Of a DNA stretch of 64,000 nt, positions 34,427-64,000 are shown in pieces. A program made the position numbers and the translations under genes. The notes under the pieces were generated by a model. It did no database searches. It saw only the letters and a list, made by a program, of their open reading frames with translations, and was not told the DNA's origin. Origin of the DNA: Patescibacteria group bacterium (lineage in GTDB: Bacteria > Omnitrophota > Gorgyraeia > Gygaellales > Profunditerraquicolaceae); assembly GCA_035506195.1 (NCBI GenBank), contig DATJPV010000041.1, forward strand, positions 112 through 64,111, in the 5' to 3' direction. Numbering within the stretch: position 1 is the first letter of the stretch; each line of letters opens with the position of its first letter.

Positions 34427-37400
34427 TTACGGGCTTTTCTTCTTCGCAGGCTTAGCCAGCCACACCTTTGTGCCCCGCGAATCGACCCCGTAATGCGCAT
34501 CGGGGTTAAGGCCTCCGTGCCCCGGCACAATAACTACGGTGTAATCCTTAAGGCGGCCGGTGTGCTGCTGATACCATGCAATAATAGTGTTTAGATCGTT
34601 TATTTTCTGCGTAAATGCTTTTTGGCGAAGATTGAACAATCCTTGCAGCGATCCGAATTCGACAAGGAGCGTATCGTAATCCAAAATGCCGGACACCCCG
34701 CCCTCCCACTCTTCGGTGACCACTACCCCTCTTCTGACTATCAGCCTATAGGTTTTTGCTTTTTTCCTGAAGAACACCATCAATCCACCGGAGGTATTAA
34801 GGTGTCCTTCGACGACCACTACGTTCTGGCCCCATTGCTCTTTGACTTGACCGATGAGACTTTCGTGATAACCGTATCCCTTGATATTGCCTTTCGGTTC
34901 ATAAAAATCGTAGCCGTAATACTGCGCAAGCCACTCATAGAGATAGTGGTTGGCGACCGGCTCGGCATAGAACCTTGCCTTTTGTTCTGTGGCGTATGTC
35001 TTGATGCCCTCAAGGATATGCCGGTACCCCTCCGCTGCGGTCTCTTGCGGCGGATTTTGCGCTGCCGGCATGCATAATGCCGTAGCCATAACCACGGTAG
35101 CTATGAATGACACGGGCGAAGAAACTGAACCGGAGGGGCCGCGGACTTCCGCGATATGCGCTTGATCCACCAATGCATCGATGATCTCTTTTACTACCCC
35201 CTTGGCATCAAGCGTACGAATTGTTTCCAGTTTCTGGACAAACACATGAGACCACGGCTTGAACCCTTGCCATACCTCTATGATCCGCTTGCCTTGAGTA
35301 ATAAACTCATGTACCTGGCTATCCGTTAACGAGCCGCCCTCTTCGGGATTTTCAACAATAAGCCGCAGCCGGTTAAATAGATCATCCTCCTCTTCCTTTG
35401 TGGCCAATGCTGCCAGGCTCATCTCGAGCTTGTCCTTGACGTCTTCTCCCATCGGCGAACTGCCGGAGACTGCAAACGAAGGTATCTGTTCAAAAAAACC
35501 TCTCTGCATTGCGTATCTGCCTATGATCTTAAAGGCAAAGTCAAACGAATCTGCGCCAGAATCAAGGTGAGTGTGCCGCAGGGGCGGAATGGCTTTTATT
35601 TTCTCTGTTTCAAGCAGATAGAGTATCCTTACGCCCAGGTCTTCTTCTGCGCGCGTGAAGGGGACGTGCACGATCCTGTCGTATCTGTCGTAGGTATCCG
35701 TATCGATCCATATTTCCTGAATGTCGTCAAGGGACAGGGGAACAATGATCTGCGGGTACGGATCTACTATGCCGGTATATCTATTTCCTACTACCCTTAA
35801 GGTGGCTTTACCTTCATGCAGGAACCGGTTGAAGGTAGCCGTAGAAACGACAAAGATAGCCGGGCTTCTGGAGCGGTCATCAAATTGACCGATCGCATAT
35901 TGATGCACAACCCGGGTCAGGGGGATTTTCCCCGTAAGGTAGTTGTTTAAAATGACTTCGTCTAAACCGTCCCTGCCGTGATAGAGCAGGCCCGGGGCGA
36001 ACTCCAGGGGCTTGTTGCTCATTACCAGCTCCAGTTGTTCGGGCCTGGTGTCGATCCCGTCTTCGGGGTCCAGCAACGCATGATCCTTCATAACCGCCAC
36101 ATCCCCCAGCGGCGAACTGGAATCCGTATCGGAATCCCCGCGTCCTTTAAGCTGCAGAGACATCTGCTCGATCTGCGCGGTTAACAACGCAAGCTTCTCT
36201 TCAATAGGGATGCCTTTGGTAAGGCATTCAAGCGCACCCCGCGCATACAATGATATATGCTCATACCGCACGTCATGATAAAGCGTCGACAGGCGCCTTA
36301 ATTGCGCAATGAAGCTTCTGAGCATTTTTTCAAGAATAAGGACCTCGTTTAACCGTTGCGGCCCCTTGTTTTCCTTCAAGGACGCAAGCTGGCGCTCGAT
36401 CTGCGCTATCCGCTCGGCGGGATCTCCTCCGGAGGCATCTTTCCTTTTCAGCGGCGAGCTGGCGCCGATACGGCTTTCCTTCTTTTTGGCTTCCCCCTTC
36501 CTTTCAAACAAGAGCAATTCGGTCATCGGACAGCCTACCATAGAGAATGCATACAGGAGGGTATCGGGGCTATTATCGGAATCCAATTCATCGTCAACGT
36601 CGATCTGCCTCAAGAGCGCCTGGTAATCCTGCCTAAGGTACTGTTCTATTTCGCCTCTTTTTTTCACGCCTCTTGGTGAGAATAATTTGCTGAACGTATT
36701 TTTTTCATCGTCATTGGTGGGCGTATTGAGCACAACCAAATAACCCGGCCTTGACAAAAACGGGATGCTCATCGATAGCACCTTCCGGAAATCAACGTAA
36801 TTAAGGACATCCGAAAGCGCAATAATATCGAACACTCCCTTATACCGCTGCCAGAACAAGCTTGTATTCCGATGCCGCCCGGAAACGTCAAGAAACCGCT
36901 TAAAGTTACGAGGCAGCCTTAATTGGTCGAGCTTTTCTGCGTCGCCCTTGAGTATAACGAGGTTTCCTTCCTGGCGGATATCTTCGGGAAGGCCGACATC
37001 GACCCCTACTACCCGAGTGCGAGAGCCTGAAAGCTTCAGTTCCGTACTAGCCTCCCCGCCATGACAGCCGATATCCAAGATCAATACGGGGTTACGTTTT
37101 TGCGACAGCCTGAATTGAACGAGGTGTTGCACCAGAACCCTCACTCCCCACTTCCCGCCTGAGTCAGAATAATTCCGCTTCCCGTACAGTTCTTCCCATT
37201 TCCGATGGTTTTGCGCCGGTGAGCTGCTTTTTTGAAAAGCCTCCCGCAAGCCGCGTAACCGTACAAGGCAATTGTTCGCATCCGGGTCCAGCAAGGTATC
37301 ATTCCAGCCGGGCTTCTGACATATCGCCTGAAGTATCGACTCTATAAACAGCTCGATCCTGTCCGGCGGGATCGGATTGCCCCGTGCATAAAGCCGCTGC

Positions 37401-40400
37401 TTCTCTGTCTCCAGAAACTCCAATACTAACGGAAGCCTAGTTTGTATGTACCGCAGGGAAAAGACAGAGTCGCTTTCAAAATCTGTTTCTTCGAAATTAT
37501 CATCCCAGTCAGCCAGCTTGTTGAGCCTCTCTCCCGGTTCGGTCAATTGCGTAATAAAGAACAATTGCGCAGCCTCAACGGACTCGTTGGTGATAAGCCC
37601 CTTGGGAACTTTAGTAAAGTGCATTACCTTTTCCAGGAGCCGGTCGCCAAGCAGTTCCTGCATTAAATGCCCTGCTGCATTAGCGATGTAGAATTCTGCA
37701 TCCTGAGACTTAACGCTTTTGAGCATGGGCCACTGCTTCATTATGCCCCTAGAGGCATCCTCGATCGTATCGTGCGCAACCGCAACGCAAGCGTCTTGCG
37801 TTGCCTCGGATTCAACTTCAAGCTCGGCGATGCCGTATTTGATGACAAGTTTGTTCTGGACCCTTAAGGGGTGAAGAAAGAAAGGCCGGTCCTGGTTCGG
37901 CCCTCTGCCAGGCCGAGCCGTATGCAGCAGGAGGGCAAAAGGAAATGTCCGGGCAATCAATTCTAACGAGGGACGGCAGTACCCTTGTTGCTTGAGATAA
38001 GCAACGGTCGAAGCATAGACACCTTCGGCCTCCAGGGCGTAAGAACGTGCACTTGTTTCGCTGATACCTGCCGGCGGGACCCGGACAAAAGACTGGCATA
38101 GCATATCTAGGAAGTCTTCTCGCGTAGCCGGGTAACCAACGACGATCTCTGCGCAACGGGAATATGCGCTTTTAAAATTATCGGGAGTAAGCCTGGCAGG
38201 AATGATCTCTGCAACCGGACTGCTGGCCTCTTTATTATAGGCATCGCGTGCCAATCGTTGCAGCGCATCCGTAAGCGCCTGGTCGCGCAGCGGCGGTACC
38301 TGATTCCTTTCGAAATTCGTTCCGACAAAACCGCTTGCCTTGCTGATAACCACAGAACGGTAATTCAGGTAGAGAAAAGACCCTTGCGCATAAAGCCCGG
38401 TATGCGTATCGAAACAGCACAAGGCAAACTGCCCTTCTTCTAAGGCCGTGCGCAAAGAATCATCCCGCGTATAATCATCGTAGGGAAGCATAAGCCCTGC
38501 AACGGGCTCGATGGCCGGTGAACTGGCTCCAGAATCAAGCCAAGCCTGGCGTACGATATCCGCGTGTATTTCGCCATACCACCGGCTTCTTTTGGGATTT
38601 ACCAAAAGCCCTTTTTCTGTCAAGCGCCGTAGCAACTGCAGGTCGTCCTTGCTCGGAGAAACCCAGCGCAGCGCGGCAACCTGCGGGTATTCGCATATCG
38701 CAAAGCGCAATAAGGCCTCGCTGACCCCTCCTCCTTCATATTCTGCCCTGGTGCGGATATCGGTTACCGCAAGCCTTTTGCCTGTGCCTTCCGGCCTTGC
38801 CGTCAAATGGCCGAACCATTCTTCACCGTCAAAGAGATCTATGATCAGGCAGCGCTTATCGAGGTTATCGCGCTTGGTAATGGCTACCCCGTAATCCGGG
38901 TTTGCGTCCTCGAGCCTGCGCAACGGTTCTTCCAGGAACGCCATTAACCTCTGCTTCCTGCTGCTGGCGCCTGCTGCTGACAGCGCCTGGGCCTCCTGGA
39001 ACCTGCGTGCCAGATAAGACTGTTTCTTGATAAGCTCCATCAGCGTAGCGGAAGTAAAGCCCGTAAAAGACTTCGGCAGTCGTTCTATCATGTCACGGAT
39101 CATATACAACACTTCATCGGGCCTGACCCCTCCCGGCAAGAACAACCCCCATACCGCATCTTGATCTTCAGTGAGTACGTATTCTATGTGCCGGATAAAC
39201 CAGGAAGGCGTAATATATATCTCATTGGCCTGTCGCAGGGCCTGAGCCAATCGATGCGCAAATGCGGTTTCAAAAGGATCCCGATCCGCTCTTTTGTCGT
39301 CGCCGTGAAATATATCGAAATCATCAACCAGGGGCATCTGGATGGTTTCTAACGCAGTTACCAATACGCTTTTTCTGGCGACGCCAGATCGAATAACAGC
39401 GTTATGCAGCTGGTCTTTGGCCTCCTGCGATAGCCTCTTATCAGAACGCACGCGAGCCGTTTCCATAACCAATGACATATCAAGGCAGGCGTGGCGCAAG
39501 GACCTATTCCCTTTCGTGAACCAAAACGCTGCCTGCAGCGCCCAGCTAGCCCTCCTGAGTTGGTCATGCGCAAGGGCATTGAGAACAAAATGCGTGATCT
39601 CTTCGCTAAACCTGAAGGGCGCCCCTGGATCCAGCATGGCATCTCGAATGCGTTCACGAGCGGTATAATCAATATGCACCAAGGTATCAGTCCCCTCTCT
39701 GTATACCCGCCGGATAAGCCCTCTTGTCCTCAAGATCGACCGCAGAGGCAGGATTTCATCCGCGGCCGAACCAAGCGCGGTGCCGCTTCCGGGCGCGTAA
39801 GAGCCTAAACGCATTTTTATCTGGTTCATCGCCCGCAGTAGGCCGGCTCCGTCATGCTTCCGCAATAACTCGGCGGTATCATACCGGTCACGGCTAACCG
39901 GCGAACTGGAGGCGCTTCCGGCGTATTGCTCGTACGCATCAACCAAGGCATGCGTAAAATCGCCGAAAGGCATGCTGTATTCGCTATCTTTGAAGATCTG
40001 CATGCCTAATGCAAAAAGCACGCGCCAGCTGATCCGGTATCCTCTGGCCCGAAGCGTCTCGATGATTCCTTTCAATGACTGGCGGGCATACACATGCTGA
40101 GGGTCGGGATCCGTTCTTTCGGATTCCTTGAATATGAATGCGATCTCTTCCTCGATTGTTTCCGGCCATCCCATCTCCTCACAGATGCTTAAGGCTCCCA
40201 TGTCTGCAATCATTTCATCGGTCACAAATATGACGGTATCATCCGAAGGATTCATAAAGTTGTGCGGCATCTCATGCGACAAGAATGCGATGAACAGGTG
40301 CTTGGAAAGCTCCCTGACCAAGAGGGCCCCTATTCTAAAAGACGCCCTTGCGTCATCGAAGGCATCGTCAAAATGGGCCCTTTCAAGCACATTCAGCGCC

Positions 40401-43400
40401 ACATTGAAATATTCGCTTTCATTCAACAAGTGGAAGAGGTTCTGATATACGATCAAAATTGCCAGAAAGTATATTTTCAATTCTTTGTCCCTTTCGGGAT
40501 TACCCAAGAGCGTCTTGACGGAGGTATTTTCGTTCAATGCGGCCTTTGCTTCCCAGAGGTACCCTGCGTGGCTGGCGCCCACAAAGTCGGCCATGAACGG
40601 CTGGCTTTGTCGTATGCCTTGCATGATCTCTATGAATGTATCCGCGCCCATGCGAAAGATCCTGTAGAATGCCTGCGTGAACCCGAAAAAGTCATCCCGG
40701 AAAATCCCGCGTAGCTGCGCTTCGCCGATGACCTGCACCAGCCGGCTGAAGACCGCCGGGCTCTCCTGTTCCATGGTTTTGACGAAATGCTCAAACCAAA
40801 AATCGCAGTCCTGCCGGGCTTCTTGCCCGAAAATGCGGATCAGTTGCTCGCGTACGCCTGAAACCGGCGAGCTGGCCTCTGACCGGCGGCCTATATTTGT
40901 TAGCGCTGCGATAGCATCGAAAAAGGGCTCTATCTGGCTGCCATCCGCCAAGAATTGCTTACGGAACAGGTACGGGATGCCAGCCACAGCTGCGTACTCG
41001 TCGATTATCTCTTGGAATGAGGCGGTAATCAGGATGACGGGGATTACGGCAGATTGCACGACCGAGCGGATCCAGCAGGCTAACATAACGCCGTCTCCGA
41101 CCCTCATGTTGAAATCGGTCACCACCAGGTCGAACGGCGTGCCGTTATCTTGGGCCTGCTTGTACATCTGGAAGGCTGGCTGGGCATCTTCGGCTTCGGC
41201 AATTTCGACCCGCTCAATATGAAACTTCACAGGCAACAGCGCAAGTTGGCTGCGTAGTTTTTCTCCCTGGGCCGGATCGTCATCGGCAATAAGTACCCGC
41301 AGGACCCGGGACGGCTCTTCTGCCGGGGAACTGGAACCCGTCTGCGACAAGGATACCCGAACCCGCTCTACCTCTGCCGGGGAAAACCTCCAATTCGCCG
41401 CAACAAACGCCCGGGATTTTATCCCTCGCATCAATCCCTCGCTTGCCCAAGAGCGTACCGTTGCCGGATCCTTGCGCAGGATCTGAGCTGCCCTTTCCGT
41501 AGACAGCCACGTTGACGTATATTTCTTCAAGGTAGCCAGGCCTTTTGCGATGCGCACAAGATCCAGGATATGGATAGCCCTGCCCTCTCTGCCGGTAAAA
41601 CCGAACAGGCTCGGTTGCACAAGATCCGTGCTACGCCCTCCCGCCTCATCGTTGCTCTTGCCAAAAATCTCCTCCACCCATTCTGCGCCGACCAATTGGT
41701 CCAGGTGCTGGGCATAATAATAAAATTCTCCCCTGCTCATCGCTAGCGCGGCCTGCTTAAGCTGGCGGTGGGCCTGGCTTAACGGAACCAAGCATGCTTC
41801 CCGGCGATAGGTTTGTCGTAGCGCCTCTAAAGAAACAAACCATATTCCCCCCACTTTCAGGGCCTGCCATTCCTGGCGGATCTCGGGCTGCTCTAGAAGC
41901 TTGCGGGCCGTATCCTGCGTTATGCCGAGTATCCTGGTCGCCTCTTTCGCAGAAACATAATTCAAAAGTTTATATACCGAAGCGTAGGGGATTTGATACC
42001 GCAAAGGCCTGCCTTGATAACGCTGGCCTACGGGTACTGCCTGGATAAAACCCTGGGCGATGAGTTCTTTTATTTTGTCTGCGCTGCGATGTGTTATTAT
42101 CCTTACCTCTTCCAGAGGATACTCTGCTTTTTCCTGCGGCGGATGCCTTAAGGCAAGTTCATGCGCTGCCAGATACAGGTAAAGATCCTGCCCTGTAAAG
42201 GTGCCTTGCACAATGCCGCGCAGGAGATTCTTCTTTATTACCTTGCCGTCCTGGCCGCACACGAAAATACTAAAATCCTTTTCGAACGTCAACCGCTTGG
42301 GAAGAGGCTGGCCGGTAACGGATACTGCCTCAGAAAGAACAGATGCCCCGGGCCGAGGAGGCAACGACTCGATCGGGAAGTGATAGACCTTGCGGTCTTC
42401 ATGAAACCATATCCTGGCTACAAAACGTTTTCTGGAATATATGATACCGACAACCCTGCCGATGCCGTAGTCGTTATGCACGACTGACGCGCAGCCCCAC
42501 AGATTCTTTAAGAGATCCAGCTTTTTCTCATGCGCAGGCAATGCGTCTGCGGCTTTTGGGGCAGGCTGACGGGTCGGCGAGCTGGCGAAAGAGCCGTCTG
42601 AGGCGTACGCCTCCCATGCCGTGCGGACAATATCATAACCGATCCTGTCGCATTTTAATACGGCGTTACATAACCGGTCCCAGCCGGTTTCCTTTAGGAG
42701 CCCACGCTGCTGCAAATGCCAGGCCATGCCAAGGTCGCCATGATTGGGCCGGCTCCACACAAGACGGCTGGCAAGCGGATGTTCAATGACGGCAAAACAA
42801 AGCAATGCCGTAGCTACGCCCGCCCTCAGGTAGCCTGCCCTGACGCGAACCGAATCGATCTGCAACCTGTTTTTCTGCGGGTGCCATTGTATCGCCAGGT
42901 TCCCGAACCAGCTCTGCGTGTCGTTATCGGATACTGTTATATCCCAGACTGTCTTTTCAATTTGCTCTTCTTCCCGGAAAGAAACAACGTAACCTTGCCT
43001 GCAGACCCCGCGTAAGCGTCCTAGCGGCGGGGATAATAATGAGCGTACTGTTTCTTCGTGAAAAACCGGCGAGCTGGAACTGCGTGCGGCATTTGCGATC
43101 CAGATCCCCCGGATACAAAGAGAGGGTTTACCGTCTTTTTGGGTCACGATGGACTGGCTGTGGAACGTATACGGCGAGCTGTCGGTTGCACATTGTGAAA
43201 CGGGCATTACCGCCTGCGCCTTCACGATAATTGGCCTGAGGCGCAGCGTGAAATGGGGTGTCTGCGGAACAACCGGATTAAGGGCATGGTAGATGCCGGG
43301 GAAAAGCTCTCTGGAGAGGGTTTCGGCACGGGCGTGTGCTGCCTGGCGCTGAAATCCGGCGGCCAGACAAAGCAGCTCTGTGTTTAACCGAAAGGCGATC

Positions 43401-52400: not shown

Positions 52401-55400
52401 GGGTTCCTCCAGGCGATCGTCACCCTTGAAAGCTGAGCCAGCGGGTCGTATTCGAAATCGATACGCGTAATGGCTGCCTTCTTGCCAATGAAAGCGATCT
52501 GCCGCACAACCTGTTCGTTATCGCGCGCCTCCCCTGCCTTGCCCTCTTCTCTTATCTGCATCAGCTCATGCGTTGTTTTTCCGGTCACCTGCATGCCTTC
52601 TGCCGGCGAACTGGACTGGCCTTCTTTTTTCTTCGTGAGCAATCCGATGGTCAGGGCTATTGTTGCCGCCCCCAAGAACAAAGGAAGGACCCAGGAATGA
52701 CTATCCTGCTGCACCATCCTCCTATCCCGGCTTGGCATTTGGCCTCTAAGGTGATAACGATTGTCGCCAAGATAAGATGCTTTCGGATTAAATAAGCTGC
52801 TTCTTCTCCATGCCCGTGCCGCAAATGCATTGGCAGTGGTGCTTTCAATGCGCCAGCCGGCAAATTGGCCAAACTCCGGATGTGTTGCCATCCAGTAGTA
52901 TAGAAGAGGCATGACCCGCTTGTGTTGGTACGCTTCTTCTACAAGGGCAACGTCTCTTAAGAGCTTGCGCTGCTGTTGATCGACGGCTAAAGAAAACCCG
53001 CCGACTATTTCTCCGTCATAATCACGCAGGAGCTCAATCCAATACCCGATGATTCGATCATCGTAGCCTTTGACTGCCCGATCGCGCGGCCAGACCCCCC
53101 TGATTGCTAAGACCTGGCTTACGATGTCATGAATCGCATCGTTCGGTAAACGAACAAGCTTACGTAACCCCTGGTCGATTACCTGCTTCTGTGCACTAGA
53201 TAGCTGCATAATCAACTCTACAGGCTCAATCACCGCCGGTGAGCTGGAAGCCTCATTGTCCAGTGCTTCCTGCTGGATCCGGATTGCTTGATACGCAAGC
53301 TCTAATTCTGAAACAGGCCGTTCGCGCAATCCGGCTTCATGGCGCAGCCTGTCGCGTATGGCCTGGTTATCGCGGAACAGCCTTCCTAACCATGCTCCGT
53401 GCAGGCGCTGGCTTTGAACGTCGGCACCGATAAAGAGCTGTTGTGCGGTTACGCGCAACTTAGGGGCATGCACGTACTCCTGAGCCTGTAAAGCCTCCCG
53501 GGAAATACGCCTCAATACAGAGCTATGGTTTTTTAAATTGATATCCCATATATGCCACTCATCTTCAGCCGTCCTGAACATAACATCGATATCAGAATCA
53601 AGGGTAAGAAAACCGTTAAAACTGCCTATCAGCCAGATCTGTCCGGCATGCAAGATCTGCCTTATTCTTTCTCCGGGCCCGACTTCCCCGAGGCGCATCA
53701 ATGCCGATTCAATTTGACCTTGGCGCAGCGTTGGTGTCTCTAATACTTTGAATATCTTCCTGAGTAGGCGCCGGTCAATAAAAGGAGTCGCGAAATAGTT
53801 TTCCAGGGATAGCTGTAATGCATGTTGCCAGTAGGGCGTTTCCGGGCCCGTCATGTGCATCAAAGCCGCAATCTCTTTGGCAACAGCTGCGGGGGTAACG
53901 ATCCCGGCCTTACGCTGATTGTCAATCCATACCGCCAGTTCAAAAAGATCCCTTTCTCCTTCTTTGATGGCCATCTGTAACATGCGCGCGGATTCCTGCG
54001 CCGGAGAGCTAGCCTGGCGACGCCGGTCCTTTGTTGCGGATCGGACGGACATATAAAACGCTTCGTGCCTGGCAGCAAGGAGCTCATACGTATATTGCCC
54101 CATAATGAACCTTCTGCCCTTTTGGCCCATCCGGATCCTCAATTCCCTATTCGCGCAGAGTTCCTCAATGCGCGCCGCAAAACCATTGATATCGCCTGCC
54201 TTGACAAGGAACCCGGTCTCGCCCGGTATCATTGCGGCCGCGATGCCGCCCGCATCAAAAGCAACCACCGGCTTTTCCATCGCCTGCGCTTCCAGGAGCG
54301 CCCTGCCCAGGCCTTCGCTCGTACTGCATAGCACCGATACATCGGAAGCGGCAATGTAGTCTCTAATCTCTTGCTGCGAAAGCCCGCCGGTAAAAATAAC
54401 GTTGTCGTCCAAGCGGCATTCCTTGACAAAAACGACTACCCTTTCCTTAAACACCGGGTCGTAATCGTTACCCGCAAAAATAACCTGTACCGGCCTGCTA
54501 CGGTCTCTGAGGATACGCGCTATCTTAAGCAGGTCAAGGTGGTTTTTCTCGGGGCTGATACGCCCTGACAAAAGCACTACCGGTGTATCGAAATGTACGC
54601 CGGCATCCCGGGCTTTTTTAGGATCAAAGAACTCCGGATCGATGCCATTCCCGAGGTTCACAAACCGCCGACGCAGGTACCACGGCACACTCTTTTCGGA
54701 AATACCGCTGATGCCCGCCGCCCAATGCACGAGCATACGAGTGGCGATATCCCTTAATAATATGTTCCCGCCGTGATTCTCCAGAAGGACTGGAATGCCC
54801 CGCGCATAACTTTGGCGCATCAGGAGCGCTGCCTCCGGAAAGGCGATCGAATGCACCATGACCAGGTCAATACGGTGTTGTGCGAATATTTCGTTTAACC
54901 GAAGCTTGAAGGTGGCGATATCCAGATTAATGATGCCGCGGCTATAGAACCTTCTGATAAGAGGCAGGCGCTGCATCAAGCCCATGAATCTGGTGGTGAC
55001 GAGCCAGTAGCGAATGAGTCCTTTGACGCCTAACTGCTCGAAGAATCTATTGAGTATACTGAAGAAGTGGTTTTCCGCGCATTTTGTGCATTGCGCGATG
55101 CTATTGTCGTGCAAAAGGACCGGCACGCGGATCAAGGTGCCCTTACCGATCTGCTCGCTTCTCACAAAAGCGCCTGCCGCATCCGTGGTAAGATATAACT
55201 GAATAATGGTTACTCGGTTCCGCCTCAACAAGGCGGCGTTGAGCCCCTGTAAATGCTGTTGCAGGCCGCCAAGGTTATCGTAGGAATAAGAAAACCGCAG
55301 GATCGTCAGACCATCTAGGCGGCCTTCTGCCGGAGAGCTGCTCTGTGCGCGGCTCGCAAAGGCTGCATGTATCGCCTCCGTAAACCGGCGTCCCATCTCT

Positions 55401-58400
55401 TCGATACCGATACCGTCGGGGCTGATAACGATATCCGCCGGATGCGCAGGGTAATCGTTTCTTTCCAGGGGTGTGGCGAGCAGTTGGCGGGCTATGTCGA
55501 CGGCTATGCCGCTGGCTATCGCGCGTTCAAAACGGCTTTTATAGCTACTGTTGAAACGCACGAGTAATTCAGGCTGGCCTTTCTCCTGATCAGCATACTC
55601 AAACAGCTTAGTAACGCATTCAATGAATAGCACATGCGCTTCCGGCGCCTCGTTGTGTGCCCATTCAGCAAGAGACCTTGTGTCCACGCGCATAGAACGT
55701 AACCCGTGATCCTGCAGCGCCTTACTCGCCAGATTAATGAGCATTGTCTTGGCTGTTGCGGTCGGCCCAATAAAGACGATATGCGCCGGCCGGCCGAGTT
55801 GGCGCTGCTCATTGGCAGTAGCTATGCGCACGATCATGGAGGCGAGTTTCTCTATGCCGCTTTCCTGTACGGGCGAGCTGGTTTTACCGCGCTGCCACCC
55901 CGAGAAGGGAGAACGGACCAGGCGGGGGAAACGCGCTATAACCAGACGGCTGCCGAGCTTCGTATCTGGCTGTTGGGTTTCGGAATTATCTATCTTGAGG
56001 GGAGCATATATCTCATCGGCGATTTGGCGCACCCGATCGTTGACGCTATCGGTCACCAGGATCCCGGCATTCTTCAGCGCCTCGATATAGAATCCGATGA
56101 ACCTAGCCCTCACCAGATGGAGATACTCAAATAACACAACCTGAACCATTGTCTTTTTTGAGCCGGAGTCAGAAAGCAAAGATACCGCCTCCTGAAGCAT
56201 GGCGATGCGCGCTTCCCGCAGATAATTGCTCGCCTGCATATGGAATGCGTGACGGGAAAAATCCTTTCCGTCAAAACGATCTGCCTTCGCAAGTGCCTCC
56301 AGATTAAGTTCATCCAGAGACATGCATATGTTTTGGAATTGCGATGCCAAAACAGGAACAAGCACAAAGGCGCGTTCGAAAGCACGGCGAGCCGGCCTTC
56401 TTAAGAGCGCCTCTATTGCCTTTGCGGGTTGAGGATAGGTATATCGCGTATCCGCGTCAGCGCGCTGATGAGCAACAGCAGGACGAATACCTTGCCGGCG
56501 AAAACTTATTTCTTCGAGTTCATGGAATACGAGCGGATCAAGATGGCGGCGGAGCGCGGATGAGAATTCTTCCTGGAAGCTTTCAACGAGGGTCTTTGAA
56601 GAGAAGTATAACGATAGGGTGCCGTTTGTTTTCCGAGCCCAGATGAATGTTGGCGGAGCGCGTGCGGTATTCTGCGTAAGATAAAAGAATCCGACCTTGA
56701 CATCGCCAAAACTTGGAACCGCCCGGTTGAAGGCAGGGACGGCTTCATAACAACCCTTGGCAATGAGTTGTTTTATCTCCTTGATATCCTGTCGGTTCAG
56801 GTTCCCGAGATAGCCATGCCCTTGAGAAACGGGGCTGGCAGCCCTCATGGGGCCTACTCCGTCCCGCGAAGGCTGCTTGACCCGGACCACAAAACGCTCA
56901 ATTAATCTATCGCTCAATAAACGCATGGGATCATTTGAAATATACGAAGGCAACGCAAAATCTCCGCCGCCATCTTGATCAATCGGAGATCTGCCTAATG
57001 CGTCTTGACGCCTTTCGAAAAAACGCGGCAAGCCGTAATGGGTCGGGACAAACTCTGCCGGGTGGAGATAGACATGTGCATCCTTAAACTTTGAGCACAC
57101 GTTACCGTAACTGCCTACGATACCGAAGTGCGTCATCTTCCCGGAAGCATCAAAATACACCACAAGAGAACCTGGCTGTGCTTTTTCTTGCGAGACAACC
57201 TGGAATGACATTGATAATATATCAAGCAGTTGCTGGTAGCCCAATCCGTTGAGCTCAGGGAAGAATTGTTTCACGTACCCCAGACAATCCATGCATGAGG
57301 GCAGGTCCTTGGTATCTTCAATAAGCATTATTCCCGGCAACACCGCAATGCTGTCGAAATCATGCTGTTCCAAGAGCCAATCGATGCATTCACGGATCTC
57401 TTCAACCGTATCGAATAGCGGAGAGCTTGTCCCCGGAAGGCGGCGTACGGTATAGATAAGCGTACCTTTGTTAATATCGTCGGCCTGTTCGCTGAAATTT
57501 CCTACGGCAGTATAACTCAGGCGCTTGCCTAACGAAGAAATATGGAAAATGCCACGGTCATTGTACACAGCCGCATTACGCGAATACGGCAATCCTATTC
57601 CTCCCCAGAAACGTGCGATTCCTTTCCTTGTTGAATATCCTTTGGTCATTGCCTTGCGCAGATCCTTAATACCCTTGCCTAGATCGCGCACCAATATCTC
57701 AAGGAACCCTGCATCGGCAGAAAGCACCACCGCGCCGGGCGCACCGGCATGCACTACGATATTAGTAGCAAGTTCATCAACTATAAAACGGATCGACTCG
57801 TCACCAGAAACAAGCTCATCCTCCCTGTCGTTTACGATTGATTCCTGCGCAAAGCCCAACGATGCGGCAAATGCCTTGATGTGCCGTCCGTATACGCTTT
57901 CCGGGGCAAATTCGTATTGATCGCTGCCTACCGGCAAAAGCAGGAATCCGCCGGAGGCAAACGGCGTGAATCCCTCCCTGCCTGTACGCGCAAGCAACGA
58001 ATCCACCTTCCTGACCACGTGCCCTTCTAGCTCGGGATACTCTGGAAGCGGAGAGCTGGAATACTGTTGAGACGCATTAAACAGCAAAACAATATTCTCT
58101 CCTTCTTTGAATTTTGTGACTCGCAGGCTAAACCGCGTATCCGGCGGATATGCCTGTCCGATACTTTCAACGAGGAAATCCTGCATAAGTGCAGTGGATT
58201 CCCCACGGCCAAGCGCGGTATCCAAAATGACCTCATATTTCATGTCTGGGCCGGGTTTATCCGCCAGTTCATACGGACGCAAGGGAACGTCGTATTGGAG
58301 GCGTGTAAGGTTGCCCCGGCGGATCAACCCTTCGATCCATACATAGAGTTCCTGGAAAGACAAACCGGTGATATCGAAATACCTATCGCCCCTGGCCGGG

Positions 58401-61400
58401 GAACTTGCGCCGTTCAAGGCTGCAATTGCCTGATACGTCGCGCCTCCAACACGGTATGCGGCCACAACGGTTTTAGATCCATGCTCGCTGAATTCTTTGG
58501 CATCGTTTTTAGCGGCAGCCGGATACTTTATGGAACTATACCCACCCAGGATTGCCGGGAATGCCCCTGAAAGAACGTGTTTTCTGAGCGTATCATGAAC
58601 CGGATAATACGGGCCAACATTCGCCAGCCTGATTGACGGCTCGGATATCCAGCGTTGGCGAATATGGGCAAACGCCGGATCGCACCATGCATGCAAGTCA
58701 CAATGCAGAAGGGAAAATCTATTCTCAGCCGGCACGGGAGGATACAGCCATTCGCTTCTTTGAAGAACTTCGCCCGGGCCATATCCTGCCTCGCGCAAGA
58801 CTTGCGCTGCGGCATAGAGAAGTTCGTCCTTACCGTCAATGCCAATGAGCCGCTTGATCCCCAGCCGGAATGCCACGAGCGCCAAGTCTCCTCTACCTGT
58901 GCCGTATTCCTCCGCGGTCATGCGGTACAGATCCTGTTGGCGCATTAAGGCTATAATCGGAACAAGGTATTCCAGGAACATAAGCGGCGCTTTCACGACA
59001 AGCCCCTGAGCCTGAGCCACCAGCCCCCAAGGCATGCTTTGGCGCAAAAGGTCAGCCAGGATGATAACATCATCTACCCTCAGGTACATATTGTTGGCTC
59101 CCGCAACTACTGCCAGATGCTTCTGTGGCGCATCAATCTCTACGGTATCTTGCCTTAAGGACGCAAAAAGTACCTTGCGGATATAATGTTCCAGCTGTTC
59201 TATGGCCCCCTCGGCAGGTTCCTCAACCGGCGAACTGGAAAATCGCGAACCTGGCCGCGGGCCGCCCGAATCCCTGAGTTTACCGGGGGTCAAGACGCGC
59301 ACTATTGTCTCCTGTAATCCTGCGATATACTCAATAGAAGTTGCAGGCCCTAATCCAATCCCTATTACTATATATTCGGCCAAGAGGCGGATAAGCTCAA
59401 TGACATCCGTATCGGGATTTGAAAGCATATCGGAATCAGTGACAAACACATCGAATATCATTACCGGCCCTTTATCGGAAAGGATGATATTCCGGGGGTT
59501 ATAGTCTAGACCGCGCAGATCCTCTATGCGTTCGTATAGGAAGGCGCATACATCATAAATAGTCGTCACGCTTCGTAATAGAGTGGGAATAAGGGCACTT
59601 TGATTAATGAGGGCGCGCCCTTCGGTATACTGCGCCGCCATGTCTCTGATGTATTGATACAGATTCCTGCCTTCGACAAACTTCCATATGAGAATAAGGT
59701 TTCCGATCCTGTCCTGCGTATAAAATCCCTCTACCACGCCCGGCGTTCTGGGCGTAAGCCCGTTAACCGCATCGACAACCTTCTTTATCGCATCGATGTC
59801 TCTGACGTCAGGGCGCCGGGCCATCTCTTGGGTTATTATCTTTATAGCTACCACGTCTGAAGGCTGATTGACTGCGTGCGCTTTCCAGGTATTGGCTGCA
59901 AGTTTTTCATCAAGTATGTAGGTAGCTCCCTCTGGCAGATAGCGCCTCTGTTTAGGCAGGATAACTTTCTGGCCGGGCTTGAAAGCCGGGAAGAGAGAAA
60001 ATGCAGTAAACGATGCGAGGGCTTCGGTGAGGTCCTGGAACACTTTTTCCGGATTCTGCTGGCCGTTTATTTTTATGGTAACCGCTTTGTAATAATCGAA
60101 TACCGCCTGTTCATATTCGCGATATTGCCGGATACGCGTGCGTATCGTGTCAGCATCGTCATCCCCCCTTCCTTCCCTGGGGTGGCCGACGAGCCTGCGC
60201 ATCGACTCCTTGTCGCTGATGTGCAGTTCGATAGCACAATCAATATAAATACCCTGTTCTGTCATATAACGGGCCGATGAGACGGTAGGCGGGTATCTAT
60301 CGAGGATAAACCCTGTCTGCATATCCTTTCGGCTGAGGTAAACCTGCATTATCTTGTCCATAATATCGTCGGGCACAAGCCTGCCGTCCAAGACGCGTTC
60401 TTGAATCACCGCTAGCTCCTCGCCGGTTAAATGGTAGGCTTGCGCTTTAGCGGGGTCGTGCAGGATATCGCGCAGGACCTGCCCCGCAGAAATGTGCGGT
60501 ATGCCTAACAACCGCGCCAGCCTGTCTGCCTGCGTATGTTTTCCGCTCCCCGGCTTACCTTTTATTACGATCCTTCTGGGCATATCTGCGGTGTCTATGG
60601 CTGAGCTGGCATCGAGTTCCGGATATCGCACGAAATATGCGTCTTCCTCCGGGCCGAAGGGAACGAATCCCAATCCCGCATAGAATTCTTCCAGCGCTTG
60701 TTGCCCTTGCGGGTGGCGCCCGAAATAAACAAGATGCGCGAGGATTGTTTCGGTAGCGCCATAGGTCCTTACAAATCTTTCTACGAGAAAATGGCCGTAG
60801 CCTTTTCCTTTGGAAAGGCGGTCTGTTTCAACAAAATCGATGAACTTGAAATCACCCAGATCTTGGCGCCTATCCGAATAACTTAATAACAGGCTGACCG
60901 CGGAATCATTTTCTGCTATATAGTAAAGTTCGTACGAGCGATGGTAACCGCGCAGAGAATAGTCGCCAAAGACCCGGTCTTTGCCGTTCTTCCACTTGTT
61001 TAATAACGATAGCATCTCCTGACGATCGCGGACGACGTGCACGATGGGCACGCTGGTGCTTTCCGCAAGCTGCACTTCAATATCTTCAAGTTCTTCCCAT
61101 AAAGTCGTTGCATGTGCGGATAAAGACAGGGCTTGTGCCTGCCTGCTGAATAATCCTCGGTTAGGCCGCTTATGCCTGGTAGATTGCGTAAGGTCTTGGA
61201 AAATTTCCTTCATTTCGCGGACAAGCTGCGCCTGCCGATCAAGGTTTGCATCCAGCCAAGCCCCGATCACCTGTTGCCTCTTCAGTAGGTACTGCAAAAC
61301 AGAATCCGATTTTACCGGCGAACTGACGGCTGGCAATCGGGTGGAGATTCTATCGATAGGAGCCTTACTTTCCTCGATATCAACTCTAAATTGTGTAAAT

Positions 61401-64000
61401 CCACCCATCGAATGCCAAGTGCCATAGTGCTCGGATATGTATTTATTGCCTGACGTTATCTGCGCGTATTCTTCAATCGCAAGTGTTTTATTAGGATCGA
61501 AATTAGTCCCAAGCAATAATGAATAATCCATATCGATCGTAGTCGGATATATGAGTATGCGCCCACCCGAAGTTGAAACCCGCATTAGTTCTTTGAACGC
61601 CCTCTTCACGAGTTGCTTCCCAGAGATGCCTCCGGGAATACCGAACAACCAAGTCACGATAGTGTAATCAAAACTATTATCTGCATACGGAAGCCCCTCA
61701 TTGAGATCGGCAACCTGAGCGGTTATATCACCGGGATAAGGAATGGGGGAGGCGTCAAGCCGAACATATCGTTGCAATGTCTTAGCCATCCGGTGAAGAA
61801 GCTGTACCCAAGGATCCCCCATCTCCAACACATATCGCAACCATTTCTTCCCGCCGTAGAGTAATTGCGCCTTCAACCAGGCCACAGTAGCTGGATTAAT
61901 ATCTACTATGCTAATGCTGGGTGGCGGGTTCATTAACTTAAAAGGCTCTTGCTGCATCAAAGAGTATTGTAAGCTTTGTGCGGCAGGAATAATCAGTAGG
62001 CGGCGGCTCGCATAAAGAGGCTCACTGACTGGCAGGGATTTCTCATATTCTCGCCAATTAGTAAAAACTGGCCTTAGGGTATTTTCCCCAAATGCGGCAT
62101 AATCAAGTAGATTATTTTGCGATACATCAAGGGAAATGATCTCTTTTTCTTCGGGTGTCAAAAGATTTTTCACCGGCGAGCTAACAGAGGGAACGGTATC
62201 TTGAATATGCTGCAAAAATGCCTTAAGCCCCCGATGGCTGGCCTCTTCCTCTAGTGCCGCCAACGGATTGATTACTTCATACATGCCTGTGCCGCGGCTG
62301 GCCACCCACTCCTGCTGAATATCCATCCGCTTGGCCCAGGCGGGCATTAGCTCCAGCGCATTCATTAACCGCAAACCGGGAAAACCGAATACGGGGGTTA
62401 CCCTGTCATTGCGCATGCCTAAACCTTCGTGGGGCTCAAGCATATAGCGTGTCCCGATCCTGGCCGCAAGGGGGATGATATTACGGCTGACCAAATACGC
62501 AGCAATCAGCACCTTGATCCCGTTGGTATTCTCAGTTGCCGTGCGGTGCGAGAAGGGGTTACTTAAAAGAATGGTTCTGGCGATGTCATTCGCATATGAT
62601 ACATTACGCTGAAAGACATAATCGGCCTTTTTGCCGCGCATGACATTGCCGACCACGGTGCGCATCCGGGATATATCAAAGAAATTAACGTAATCCGCCG
62701 TCATCAATAACCCATCACCATTAAGGTGGCGAGAATCCGATGCCGGGACGTATACGGCGTGCAAGGCGTTGCCGCACGCAAAATACTTATTATTGGCAAC
62801 GTCCACAACATGCGGGTTTCCATCAAAACCATAAAAGCGGACCTTCCAGTCCTGCCACGGCTCACTCAGTTCGATAAGGACTTTGTAAAAACTCTGCACC
62901 ACCATGATTGCTTCCAGAGGATTCTCGCCTAACCCGAATCCCGCAAAGACCATCGTGCGATTCCCATGGCCTGGCTCATTTCTTGCGCGGATGATTCTCT
63001 TAAAATCTGCCTCCATAAGCTGCCTCTGGAACCTATCTTCGCAGTCATCGGTGAAATTAAGATCAGCGGTGTAATCCGCATGCCGGTCTACAATATAATT
63101 CACCAGGCGGAATAAGTCCTCGCCGGTAAATCCGATAGTTTGTAACTCGGGCAACAAGGGGACGATTGCTTCCAAGACGCCCTTCCTTAATTGCTCCAGC
63201 TCCGCCTCCATCGGCGAGCTGGCGCGCCCGTACGATTCGTCTTCCAGGGGCAGATAACTGACTTCTGCGCCTAACTTTGCTATGAGAATTTTTATCTTTT
63301 CATCTTGGAATACGTGCGATAGCATGATTTTTATGTGCGGATTGGCAACGACAAAAATTACCCTTGCGAAATGAAGGACTTCTTTGAGCTCGATATAGCG
63401 CTCCAATTTAGCGCTTATCTCCTTCAATATTTTCTGCTTAACCTCAACGCCGAACCAACTTTTAGTTTCGACGATACACAGGCGGCCCTGCGTATCTGCA
63501 ACTAGGGCATCGAATTGCGTCGCTTCGCTACCGGCCGATATGACCCTATAACCTAGATGCTGCAGGAATTCCAGTGCCCTAAATTCGTTCCATAAACAAA
63601 ACAGGTCGCTGAACGCCCCCTTAGGATGAACCCGGGCAAGCACGTTAGCCGGCAACTCGACTCCCAATCTTTGCATCTTTAGCCATGAAGGGACGATTTT
63701 TTCCAGGAACCTTGCTTCCATAAATGCAGCCCACTGCTGCTCTATCCTCGCGAAGTCTTTTGGAGGGATATCCTCCAATGATCTTCCTGTCTGAAGGCAT
63801 CTGTCTGCGTATTCGAATACCGGCCTGATTATATCGAACCCGGCTTCCCCGAGACCCTTAAGAAGATTGTAATGAATATACATGGAATTCCTGCCTGCGT
63901 GAATCAATGCAAAACCCATCGTAAAGACATCATTGGCTTCTCTCAAAAGAACGACTAATCTGCGCTGTTGTAGGGTGGGCCTACCGGAAGAAAAGAGCAC
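34427..64000 (-). CDS. Giant multi-enzyme modular protein (at least 9,857 aa; the N-terminus lies beyond window position 64000) of about 30 unrelated catalytic or regulatory modules joined by Ser-Ser-Pro junctions
   Basis: The minus-strand frame is uninterrupted for the whole 29.6 kb. In 55% GC DNA a stop would be expected about every 20-25 codons. Recognisable enzyme motifs occur throughout (see sub-features). The stop codon TAA is read at about 34428-34430 by my count, whereas the track gives 34427. Confidence 0.85.
   Translation of the reverse strand: [9857 protein letters not shown]
36471..37214 (-). other. Giant-ORF module: class I SAM methyltransferase
   Basis: It has [15 protein letters not shown] (motif I) and VVGVDVG. 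Confidence 0.5.
37227..38215 (-). other. Giant-ORF module: HD-domain phosphohydrolase resembling the (p)ppGpp hydrolase domain of RelA/SpoT
   Basis: [12 protein letters not shown] (the His of HD motif I) and [12 protein letters not shown] (HD motif) are present at about 37745-37780. The spacing matches the SpoT HD domain. Confidence 0.55.
40874..41323 (-). other. Giant-ORF module: stand-alone response-regulator receiver (REC) domain
   Basis: It has [18 protein letters not shown]...[15 protein letters not shown]...IPVILITAS. Confidence 0.6.
43727..46105 (-). other. Giant-ORF module: radical SAM domain followed by a class I SAM methyltransferase
   Basis: The CX3CX2C motif is [16 protein letters not shown], encoded at about 45790-45815. 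The downstream methyltransferase has [13 protein letters not shown] (motif I) and [11 protein letters not shown]. Confidence 0.65.
46115..47833 (-). other. Giant-ORF module: GT9-like (heptosyltransferase-type GT-B) glycosyltransferase
   Basis: [38 protein letters not shown] resembles the WaaC/WaaF N-terminal motif (irlsalGD...P...lr..fP.a.i). Confidence 0.45.
47843..48364 (-). other. Giant-ORF module: metallophosphoesterase-like
   Basis: It has [10 protein letters not shown], with a GHxH-like motif V. Support is weak. Confidence 0.35.
48890..49969 (-). other. Giant-ORF module: response-regulator receiver (REC) domain followed by a class I SAM methyltransferase
   Basis: The REC part is [25 protein letters not shown]...[21 protein letters not shown]...AILMTEK. 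The methyltransferase part is [12 protein letters not shown] and [14 protein letters not shown]. Confidence 0.6.
53246..54001 (-). other. Giant-ORF module: Pol-beta-like nucleotidyltransferase
   Basis: It has [21 protein letters not shown] (G-S ... D-x-D). Confidence 0.45.
54011..55329 (-). other. Giant-ORF module: GT4 (GT-B fold, retaining) glycosyltransferase
   Basis: [13 protein letters not shown] is present, and the EX7E region is [24 protein letters not shown]. Confidence 0.7.
55342..55870 (-). other. Giant-ORF module: P-loop NTPase
   Basis: Walker A is [13 protein letters not shown]. A hhhhE-like Walker B is HVLFIEC. Confidence 0.45.
57428..58048 (-). other. Giant-ORF module: GHKL/HATPase_c-type ATPase (anti-sigma-factor / histidine-kinase-like)
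   Basis: It has an N-box-like segment [14 protein letters not shown], a G1 segment [11 protein letters not shown] and a G2 segment RFWGGIGL. Confidence 0.45.
59237..61316 (-). other. Giant-ORF module: GNAT acetyltransferase, adenylate kinase and protein-kinase-like domains in one junction-bounded segment
   Basis: The GNAT motif A is [17 protein letters not shown]. The adenylate kinase motifs are [35 protein letters not shown] (about 60541-60600). The kinase-like motifs are VAIKII (about 59830-59860), DYNPRNIIL and MIFDVFV. Confidence 0.6.
61326..62174 (-). other. Giant-ORF module: class I SAM-dependent methyltransferase (Methyltransf_11-like)
   Basis: The motif I-like region is [11 protein letters not shown]. 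The post-II motif is [14 protein letters not shown] (LPF-D-SFD). Confidence 0.5.

Follow-up and report, generated by a model that had tools for sequence, protein, structure and literature searches.

A recurring Ser-Ser-Pro junction with a fixed serine codon order between the modules of a giant Omnitrophota-type multi-enzyme gene

The stretch of DNA considered here, referred to below as the window, comprises 64,000 nt of contig DATJPV010000041.1 (assembly GCA_035506195.1; GTDB phylum Omnitrophota), and its minus strand carries a giant open reading frame (ORF) at 34427..64000. This ORF has 9,857 codons and a TAA stop at 34427-34429 and is still open at the window edge; because it runs off the window and its 5' part lies outside, 9,857 aa is a minimum length. 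With at least 29,574 nt free of stop codons it passes the length of >20 kb that defines the giant multi-enzyme ORFs of Omnitrophota, and its tiling by glycosyltransferase, methyltransferase, HATPase_c, GNAT and receiver domains is also that of this class. Pfam matches were obtained for ADK, GT1, several methyltransferases, two receiver domains, HATPase_c, GNAT and HTH_17, and the types of unit in the protein include a complete glycosyltransferase, an adenylate kinase, methyltransferases, receiver domains, a GNAT domain and a metallopeptidase. The tripeptide Ser-Ser-Pro (SSP) splits the chain into 33 segments with a median length of 255 aa (range 35-799 aa); the giant gene consists of no fewer than 33 enzyme-like modules in a row, unrelated to one another, with copies of one SSP linker between them (Table 1).

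All of the in-frame SSP sites pointed out in an initial annotation of this DNA were recovered, 32 in number against 1.9 expected from composition, which makes SSP the most over-represented tripeptide of the giant protein (17-fold). The same annotation had described a pattern in the serine codons, with AGY at the first and TCN at the second position in 31 of the sites and a single exception at 38216. The pattern is strong, but it holds at 30 of the 32 sites: the junction at 38216 does read AGC-AGT, but the one at 35114 (TCT-TCG-CCC) is a second exception, and both still encode SSP. The proline codon is CCG at 29 of the sites, as had been counted before, and six copies of the 12-mer GCC-AGC-TCG-CCG were found again, although the copy previously given as 36462 starts at 36452. 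Residue -1 of the tripeptide is S, A, V, T or G in 31 of 32 cases (p ~2e-14) and residue +1 is V, A, L, M or I in 30 (p ~2e-12), while E and Q are common at +4 and +5. The preferences at -1 and +1 act at the amino-acid level and are spread over several codons. AGY codons represent 35% of the serine codons in the giant gene and its neighbours, and the AGY-TCN order has an expected frequency of ~0.23, compared to which 30 of 32 sites corresponds to p ~1.5e-17. Serine pairs located away from the junctions in the giant gene are mostly TCN-TCN, and no SSP was found in the 10,691 aa encoded by the other 24 genes of the window. An ordinary codon preference, which had been named among the findings that could undo the claim, was absent both from these genes and from the serine pairs outside the junctions.

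At the DNA level the 9-mer CGGNGARCT is present 34 times in the window and the 12-mer CGGCGAGCTGGC six times, compared to 4.4 and 0.02 expected from shuffles. On the coding strand of the giant gene the whole window contains 32 copies of AGYTCNCCG, of which 28 are in the frame of the gene, two are out of frame inside it and two are located in the 34 kb beside it. A further two copies, on the opposite strand, also lie in those 34 kb. No enrichment was detected outside the giant gene within the window, and a genome-wide uptake- or Chi-like DNA word was rejected for this reason. One of the out-of-frame copies inside the gene (52358-52371, minus strand) matches 53232-53245, a junction ~0.9 kb away, in all of its 14 nt, and the other is found at 46873-46881; they would read SSPA and SSPV in their own frame.

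Variation inside AGYTCNCCG is confined to third codon positions. Three synonymous choices are made more often than expected from context-matched codon usage: C as the last base of codon -1 (26 of 32 versus ~0.41-0.47), TCG (20 of 31 versus 0.33-0.49) and CCG (29 of 32 versus 0.40-0.43), while AGC and AGT are used in the background ratio. The flanks were confirmed to be unrelated, as there is no sequence information beyond nt -3 to +11. The junction forms the top direct-repeat family of the giant gene, and three junctions (the QSSSPAEG subfamily) have ~10 extra nucleotides in common. The rare AGY-AGY variant is found at two neighbouring positions, aa 8346 and 8593, and both codon exceptions could be derived by loss of one codon from SSSP forms (TCC AGY TCN CCG and AGC AGC TCN CCG).

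Short stretches of hydrophilic coil, which separate units that fold autonomously, harbour the SSP sites. None of the 32 sites is located inside a Pfam envelope (P ~0.01 by chance), and a trough of hydrophobic residues of ~15 positions (-7 to +7) surrounds them. Both receiver domains start 12 residues after an SSP, and a GT-B glycosyltransferase fills one module end to end, its PDB homologues stopping ~10 residues before the next SSP. Structure prediction with AlphaFold gave the same picture for two segments. The model of module M24 (aa 7711-8040, from a seven-sequence alignment) has a mean predicted local distance difference test (pLDDT) score of 86 and a predicted template modelling score of 0.88, with pLDDT <50 only at residues 1-3 and 322-330, that is, at the two junctions. 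In the model of aa 7505-7765 the receiver core reaches pLDDT 85-97 and the SSPs at 7557 and 7710 are both in DSSP coil; a helix begins at the proline of the latter, while the former is followed by coil and then a beta strand, with no helix. The earlier proposal that the junctions lie between folded domains was therefore sustained, since homology blocks also end there, and sites inside folded domains, which would have spoken against it, were not encountered.

About six decayed junctions mark further domain boundaries inside long modules (Table 1). Paralogy among the modules is detectable for two pairs only, M07/M19 and M21/M25 (30-31% identity), and each copy has an intact or decayed junction before it. 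The M07/M19 family (FFYLT..ARAPP.FIWAR..L.VYFSS) is without a Pfam model and appears specific to large proteins of Omnitrophota. The N-terminal half of M18, also without a Pfam match, looks radical-SAM-like by eye only (a CxxxCxxC-like stretch). Only one helix of the 9,857 aa is strongly hydrophobic and resembles a transmembrane segment; it is found at aa 3771-3789 (52634-52690, minus strand), adjoining junction 12 on its upstream side and followed by KKKEGQSSSP.

Table 1. Junctions, decayed junctions and the metallopeptidase module of the giant gene (window coordinates; codons read in frame on the minus strand)
Feature	Position	Strand	Peptide	Codons	Remark
Junction 1	63212..63220	-	ASSPM	GCC AGC TCG CCG ATG	
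Junction 2	62174..62182	-	VSSPV	GTT AGC TCG CCG GTG	
Junction 3	61316..61324	-	VSSPV	GTC AGT TCG CCG GTA	
Junction 4	59228..59236	-	SSSPV	TCC AGT TCG CCG GTT	
Junction 5	58397..58405	-	ASSPA	GCA AGT TCC CCG GCC	
Junction 6	58049..58057	-	SSSPL	TCC AGC TCT CCG CTT	
Junction 7	57419..57427	-	TSSPL	ACA AGC TCT CCG CTA	
Junction 8	55871..55879	-	TSSPV	ACC AGC TCG CCC GTA	Orthologous junction in L001, different module after it there
Junction 9	55331..55339	-	SSSPA(EG)	AGC AGC TCT CCG GCA	Start of complete GT-B glycosyltransferase module
Junction 10	54002..54010	-	ASSPA	GCT AGC TCT CCG GCG	~10 aa past GT1 fold end
Junction 11	53237..53245	-	SSSPA	TCC AGC TCA CCG GCG	
Junction 12	52604..52612	-	SSSPA(EG)	TCC AGT TCG CCG GCA	Right after hydrophobic helix aa 3771-3789
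Junction 13	50909..50917	-	VSSPV	GTC AGC TCG CCG GTT	
Junction 14	49970..49978	-	GSSPI	GGC AGC TCG CCG ATA	Receiver domain begins 12 aa later
Junction 15	48881..48889	-	SSSPL	TCT AGC TCG CCG TTG	
Junction 16	48365..48373	-	ASSPA	GCC AGC TCG CCG GCG	
Junction 17	47834..47842	-	ASSPL	GCC AGC TCG CCG CTT	
Junction 18	46106..46114	-	TSSPV	ACC AGC TCT CCG GTT	
Junction 19	43709..43717	-	SSSPL	AGC AGC TCT CCC CTG	Before M19, paralogue of part of M07
Junction 20	43172..43180	-	DSSPY	GAC AGC TCG CCG TAT	
Junction 21	43067..43075	-	SSSPV	TCC AGC TCG CCG GTT	Before GNAT-like module M21
Junction 22	42575..42583	-	ASSPT	GCC AGC TCG CCG ACC	
Junction 23	41324..41332	-	SSSPA(EE)	TCC AGT TCC CCG GCA	Coil between HTH_17 and receiver domains
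Junction 24	40865..40873	-	ASSPV	GCC AGC TCG CCG GTT	Coil between receiver domain and metallopeptidase module
Module M24	39905..40870	-			Thermolysin-like (gluzincin) metallopeptidase fold, invariant HExxH...ExxxD
Junction 25	39899..39907	-	SSSPV	TCC AGT TCG CCG GTT	Low-confidence C-terminal edge of metallopeptidase model
Junction 26	38516..38524	-	ASSPA	GCC AGT TCA CCG GCC	
Junction 27	38216..38224	-	ASSPV	GCC AGC AGT CCG GTT	AGY-AGY exception
Junction 28	37217..37225	-	SSSPA	AGC AGC TCA CCG GCG	
Junction 29	36452..36460	-	ASSPL	GCC AGC TCG CCG CTG	
Junction 30	36110..36118	-	SSSPL	TCC AGT TCG CCG CTG	
Junction 31	35453..35461	-	GSSPM	GGC AGT TCG CCG ATG	
Junction 32	35114..35122	-	VSSPV	GTT TCT TCG CCC GTG	TCN-TCN exception
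Probable decayed junction	60599..60607	-	DASSAI	GCC AGC TCA GCC ATA	~10 aa before adenylate-kinase domain
Probable decayed junction	56984..56992	-	GRSPI(DQDGGG)	GGC AGA TCT CCG ATT	Resembles composite SSPID..DGG linker of L005
Probable decayed junction	56831..56839	-	AASPV	GCC AGC CCC GTT	L001 homology begins here
Possible decayed junction	51488..51496	-	ASSSL	GCC AGT TCG TCG CTT	
Probable decayed junction	44687..44695	-	SSSSI	TCC AGC TCT TCG ATT	~30-60 aa before methyltransferase domain in M18
Probable decayed junction	38957..38965	-	GASSRK	GCC AGC AGC AGG	3 aa before start of homology to M21

Relatives of the giant gene are few. When 1.84 billion representatives were scanned exhaustively with HMMER and a 1,200-aa query, only seven matches fell below 1e-10. 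No matches were obtained in word-indexed protein searches (queries aa 1-4950 and M24), in genome- and metagenome-contig scans with 2,000-aa pieces, or in metagenome and viral scans with alignments of the M07 family or M24. All named relatives of giant-gene modules belong to Candidatus Omnitrophota or Omnitrophica. M24 is the best-conserved module among them: seven relatives of it align within aa 7728-8036, between the SSPs at 7710 and 8032, and have nothing else in common with the giant gene.

The closest relative (P0016/L001) shares 59% identity over 347 aa, a match that runs from a decayed junction at aa 2388 (AASPV, which reads AGSPV in L001) to the junction TSSPV at aa 2708. At the orthologous junction L001 reads GSSPISSSSPAG, in which the second copy is encoded as TCC AGC TCC CCG GCG. 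The neighbours of the shared module in L001 differ on both sides, with a GNAT domain upstream and a formate-tetrahydrofolate ligase (FTHFS) downstream, and this directly demonstrates an exchange of modules in which the junction served as breakpoint. An in-frame TGA is located at 2417-2419 of L001, inside the ligase domain, the rest of which follows without a change of frame; read-through, a pseudogene or an error of sequencing could each be the cause.

Other relatives contain linkers repeated at the DNA level. In L005 (35% GC) an exact 83-nt repeat encoding GMVLGGSSPIDTNKDGGKTFAKEEFEEP is found at 1-83 and 4881-4963, with a different sequence downstream of each copy. The SSP of this repeat is written AGC TCG CCG, although in L005 AGC and TCG make up only 5% and 7% of the Ser codons and CCG 11% of the Pro codons, and the flanks are AT-rich. 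A linker of 173 nt (~58 aa) is present in three copies in L007 (2756-2928, 5021-5193 and 9560-9732; 60-93% identity), an Omnitrophica protein of 3,547 aa in which the modules on either side of the linker are unrelated. It contains ...GSHGTFEKxEEAPVVTLARQTGAPIMR...RRLSPxYGTAD..., and its copies end in GTADNTSSPM, GTAEDGSEEP and GTADNGSGKS. Together with the module swap in L001 and the variants derivable by deletion of one codon, these 83-nt and 173-nt repeats strengthen the initial suggestion that the junction has been repeatedly copied or recombined.

A second type of punctuation, Asp-Gly-Gly (DGG), is enriched in three relatives: ten copies versus 0.67 expected in L004, six versus 0.3 in L005 and four versus 0.4 in L009. 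Its context is usually x-D-G-G-[SRK]-[KR], the stretches concerned are 9-8010 of L004 and 103-4164 of L009, and its third codon positions vary freely; it is possible that it represents a double-glycine-type site. A linker of L005 joins both motifs, SSP and DGG (GGSSPIDTNKDGGK), while the giant gene of the window has only one DGG, found in the decayed junction GRSPIDQDGGG, similar to this composite linker. In two further Omnitrophota giants, L002 and L003, neither SSP nor DGG occurs and no tripeptide of another kind is over-represented, and SSP as a universal feature of such giants was rejected for this reason. In L004 an N-terminal segment of 102 nt (M..KCKTKxQNSKxLNFKLWF) occurs at 38-139 and 2853-2954 with 84% identity, opening two adjacent large ORFs of 944 and 1,721 aa with a single stop between them; a toxin-antitoxin pair and V-type ATPase genes are located downstream of these.

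The remaining part of the window (1-34400) encodes MnmG, a class II-like ribonucleotide reductase, LacI-type regulators, phosphoglucomutase, an MFS sugar transporter and GH113, GH130 and GH94 genes for mannan and cellobiose. A small PilZ-like ORF lies just downstream of the stop of the giant gene. Phage, conjugation or other mobile-element genes were not found in the 34 kb beside the giant gene, and no recombinase is present among the 24 neighbouring genes.

Thermolysin-type enzymes favour a hydrophobic residue at P1', and it is a fold of this type that was found in M24. The module has no Pfam match, nor did a PDB sequence profile search with it return a match; its thermolysin-like fold was revealed by the structural model, with similarity at 13-14% identity. 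The giant protein resembles a polyprotein in two respects, as a short site recurs in exposed linkers between folded units and a protease is part of the same chain. Omnitrophota giant proteins have been suspected to be cleaved, at points that are unknown (West-Roberts et al. 2023, bioRxiv 10.1101/2023.11.21.568195). Taken with the hydrophobic residue at +1 in 30 of 32 junctions, the fold of M24 and a published proposal of processing by zincin-like domains (discussed below), this led us to prefer, tentatively, among the conceivable functions that SSP plus hydrophobic residue could be a polyprotein processing site, cut before the hydrophobic residue that follows the proline, for which M24 may be the candidate processing protease. 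Cleavage of the signal peptidase I type after the second serine was rejected, given the proline at +1, which blocks this enzyme.

The explanation we regard as somewhat probable is that the 32 SSPs are the conserved core of one homologous family of inter-module linkers, spread by copying and recombination, kept mainly by selection at the protein level and perhaps processed. No single substitution leads from one serine codon family to the other without loss of serine, so the fixed AGY-then-TCN order can be read as a mark of common descent. One ancestral linker with this order would have been kept under purifying selection, its copies retaining the arrangement. Modules would have been duplicated, swapped, inserted and lost by recombination within the linkers, whereby the linker itself would spread and become partly homogenised; such homogenisation may be the reason why synonymous positions are identical more often than expected. 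The linker would be kept at the protein level because it delimits modules, and the restriction of variation to synonymous positions points to protein-level selection as the main keeper. A cut before the hydrophobic residue after the proline could then be made by M24 or by a peptidase encoded in the 5' part beyond the window. Several observations weigh against this explanation. Descent and protein-level selection alone do not predict the frequency of CCG or of C at the third position of codon -1, nor do they predict AGC-TCG-CCG in the AT-rich relative L005. Only one relative of the SSP lineage was recovered (L001, 2.5 kb), and the junction-like SSPs in L006, L007 and the first copy of L001 are TCN-TCN, so that a single ancestral AGY-TCN would need extra events such as codon deletions. 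With respect to cleavage, the P1' preference of thermolysin is transferred from fold similarity, proline at P1 is an unusual scissile context, and L002 and L003 carry M24 without SSP, indicating that the peptidase module does not require the tripeptide.

A purely structural linker has to be taken seriously, though it is doubtful: the SSP would serve to insulate the domains or as a hinge between them, in many cases capping a helix (Ser as N-cap, Pro at N1, then E/Q), in one working chain without cleavage, and the codon pattern would derive from descent. In agreement with this, helices in both models start at or within ~2 residues of the proline, E and Q are frequent at the positions mentioned above, the decayed junctions have been tolerated, and such proteins have been treated as membrane-anchored single polypeptides (Seymour et al. 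2023, PMC10066038; 2026 preprint, 10.64898/2026.06.07.730766). However, a generic hinge needs no invariant tripeptide at 32 sites, as ordinary linkers are compositionally biased and not sequence-fixed; the SSP at 7557 precedes coil and strand and not a helix; and a peptidase module that appears catalytically complete, judging from its sequence, is embedded in the ORF. We consider it unlikely that the nucleotide or codon string itself is functional, either with AGCTCGCCG(G) as a DNA site or microhomology for a recombination system that shuffles cassettes, or with AGC-UCG-CCG as a tRNA-specific translational signal for a programmed pause or a 2A-like skip of the peptide bond before Pro. What speaks for it speaks at the same time against the linker explanation favoured above: synonymous positions vary less than context-matched codon usage would predict, and L005 keeps AGC TCG CCG against its own codon usage. 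The free third positions of DGG in relatives imply that this over-conservation is specific to SSP, and an exact 14-nt copy exists out of frame. On the other side, 28 of the 30 giant-gene copies are locked in frame, all variation is synonymous, with SSP encoded by the two exceptions as well, the neighbouring preferences act on amino acids, there are no inverted repeats and no flanking information, the neighbouring genes include no recombinase, and other lineages use TCN-TCN.

Specific forms of this idea were also considered. The whole window has no Rfam matches, and the minimum free energy at the junctions (-24.4 kcal/mol, compared to -22.3 for random in-gene windows) is only marginally lower, as expected for a GC-rich 9-mer; a structured RNA element was rejected on the basis of the absent Rfam match and the lack of a special fold. 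Internal translation starts after the junctions were rejected as well, since Shine-Dalgarno-like motifs and start codons are no commoner there than at random positions. An integron-like attC/cassette system was rejected given the absence of information beyond -3 to +11 and of a neighbouring recombinase and the frame-locking of the motif, and 2A-like 'StopGo' given that D(V/I)ExNPG-P is absent and that nothing is conserved upstream of residue -1, where 2A needs a nascent-peptide motif. The alternative put forward in the initial annotation, a functional nucleotide or RNA motif, has consequently lost ground, on account of the frame-locking, the purely synonymous variation and the lack of an Rfam match, special fold or internal start. 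Given the synonymous over-conservation and the retention of AGC-TCG-CCG in a relative with 35% GC, an instruction read additionally at the nucleic-acid level, as a ribosomal break or pause before Pro or as a dedicated in-frame recombination site, is kept as a quite improbable option. Least credible of all is independent convergence or plain codon bias, in which SSP would have arisen many times as a good linker written in preferred codons. AGC is indeed the commonest serine codon and CCG the commonest proline codon of the giant gene, and TCG is somewhat favoured before C; but a choice of best codons would make both serines AGC, and the rarity expected for AGY-TCN, the TCN-TCN usage of the other serine pairs and the absence of SSP from the neighbouring genes all contradict it.

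Omnitrophota are characterised by giant ORFs of 20-250 kb, whose function is an open problem, including whether the proteins work as one chain or as cut products. Published work states that the absence of known cleavage points blocks structural analysis of these proteins. With the SSP sites, candidate boundaries that may also be cleavage sites are made explicit for the first time in such proteins, and their list renders the question testable in existing metaproteomes through neo-termini. They also offer a rational way of splitting the chains for structure prediction, which yielded here the model (pLDDT 86) of a peptidase unmatched in Pfam. Furthermore, they suggest that giant genes grow through recombination at homologous linkers, analogous to exon shuffling, and the excess conservation at synonymous sites may hint at more than this. 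If a codon-specific ribosomal event were true, the giant ORF would be an 'operon in one reading frame', with more than 30 enzymes released without a protease; if an in-frame recombination site were true, it would be a means by which Omnitrophota assemble and reshuffle giant genes.

Several known systems resemble the giant gene in part. The use of AGY versus TCN codons as lineage markers for conserved serines is reportedly due to Brenner ('two serines', 1988); the argument originally concerned catalytic serines across a family, while here it is applied to 32 linker copies within one gene. MARTX toxins and viral polyproteins have short exposed linkers between their effector or enzyme modules, with a recurring site that is cut by a protease of the same chain: Leu-X sites and a cysteine protease domain in MARTX, and Q/G-type sites and 3C-like proteases in viruses, where cleavage has been demonstrated. 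The site, the protease class and the biology are different in the giant protein, whose cleavage is hypothetical. C39 peptidases process double-glycine leaders, and C39 domains have been reported in Omnitrophota giants. The DGG punctuation of the Omnitrophota relatives is similar to such leaders, unlike the giant gene with its single DGG, and a C39 domain was not seen in the available part of the latter.

In the polyvalent proteins of phages and conjugative elements, a zincin-like domain has been proposed to release the other domains by autoproteolysis (Iyer et al. 2017, PMC5512222). The giant protein is similar to these in combining many unrelated enzymatic domains in one polypeptide with an embedded HExxH zincin domain (M24). 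However, polyvalent proteins have 2-15 domains and a mobile-element context, whereas the giant protein has at least 33 modules and chromosomal neighbours of sugar metabolism and housekeeping, and no conserved junction motif has been described for them. Membership of this mobile-element class was rejected on grounds of context, given the MnmG, ribonucleotide reductase, sugar-utilisation and LacI-type neighbours.

The closest parallel is formed by the giant ORFs of Omnitrophota, described as 'Archaeovorin-type' or 'multi-enzyme' (West-Roberts et al. 2023, 10.1101/2023.11.21.568195; Seymour et al. 2023, PMC10066038; 2026 preprint 10.64898/2026.06.07.730766). As in these, an ORF of more than 20 kb is tiled with methyltransferase, HATPase_c, GNAT, GT1 and receiver domains, is poorly conserved and has identifiable relatives only in Candidatus Omnitrophota. 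The published giants have N-terminal C39/S8 peptidases, SecA-like domains and many transmembrane helices, while the window covers no 5' part of the gene. They differ from the giant gene in that the papers report no punctuation motif, and a codon-fixed tripeptide marking module boundaries was not mentioned in the Omnitrophota giant-ORF literature searched. Giant multi-enzyme ORFs of Omnitrophota were thus already known; the codon-fixed boundary tripeptide, an SSP motif specific to this lineage, would be what is new.

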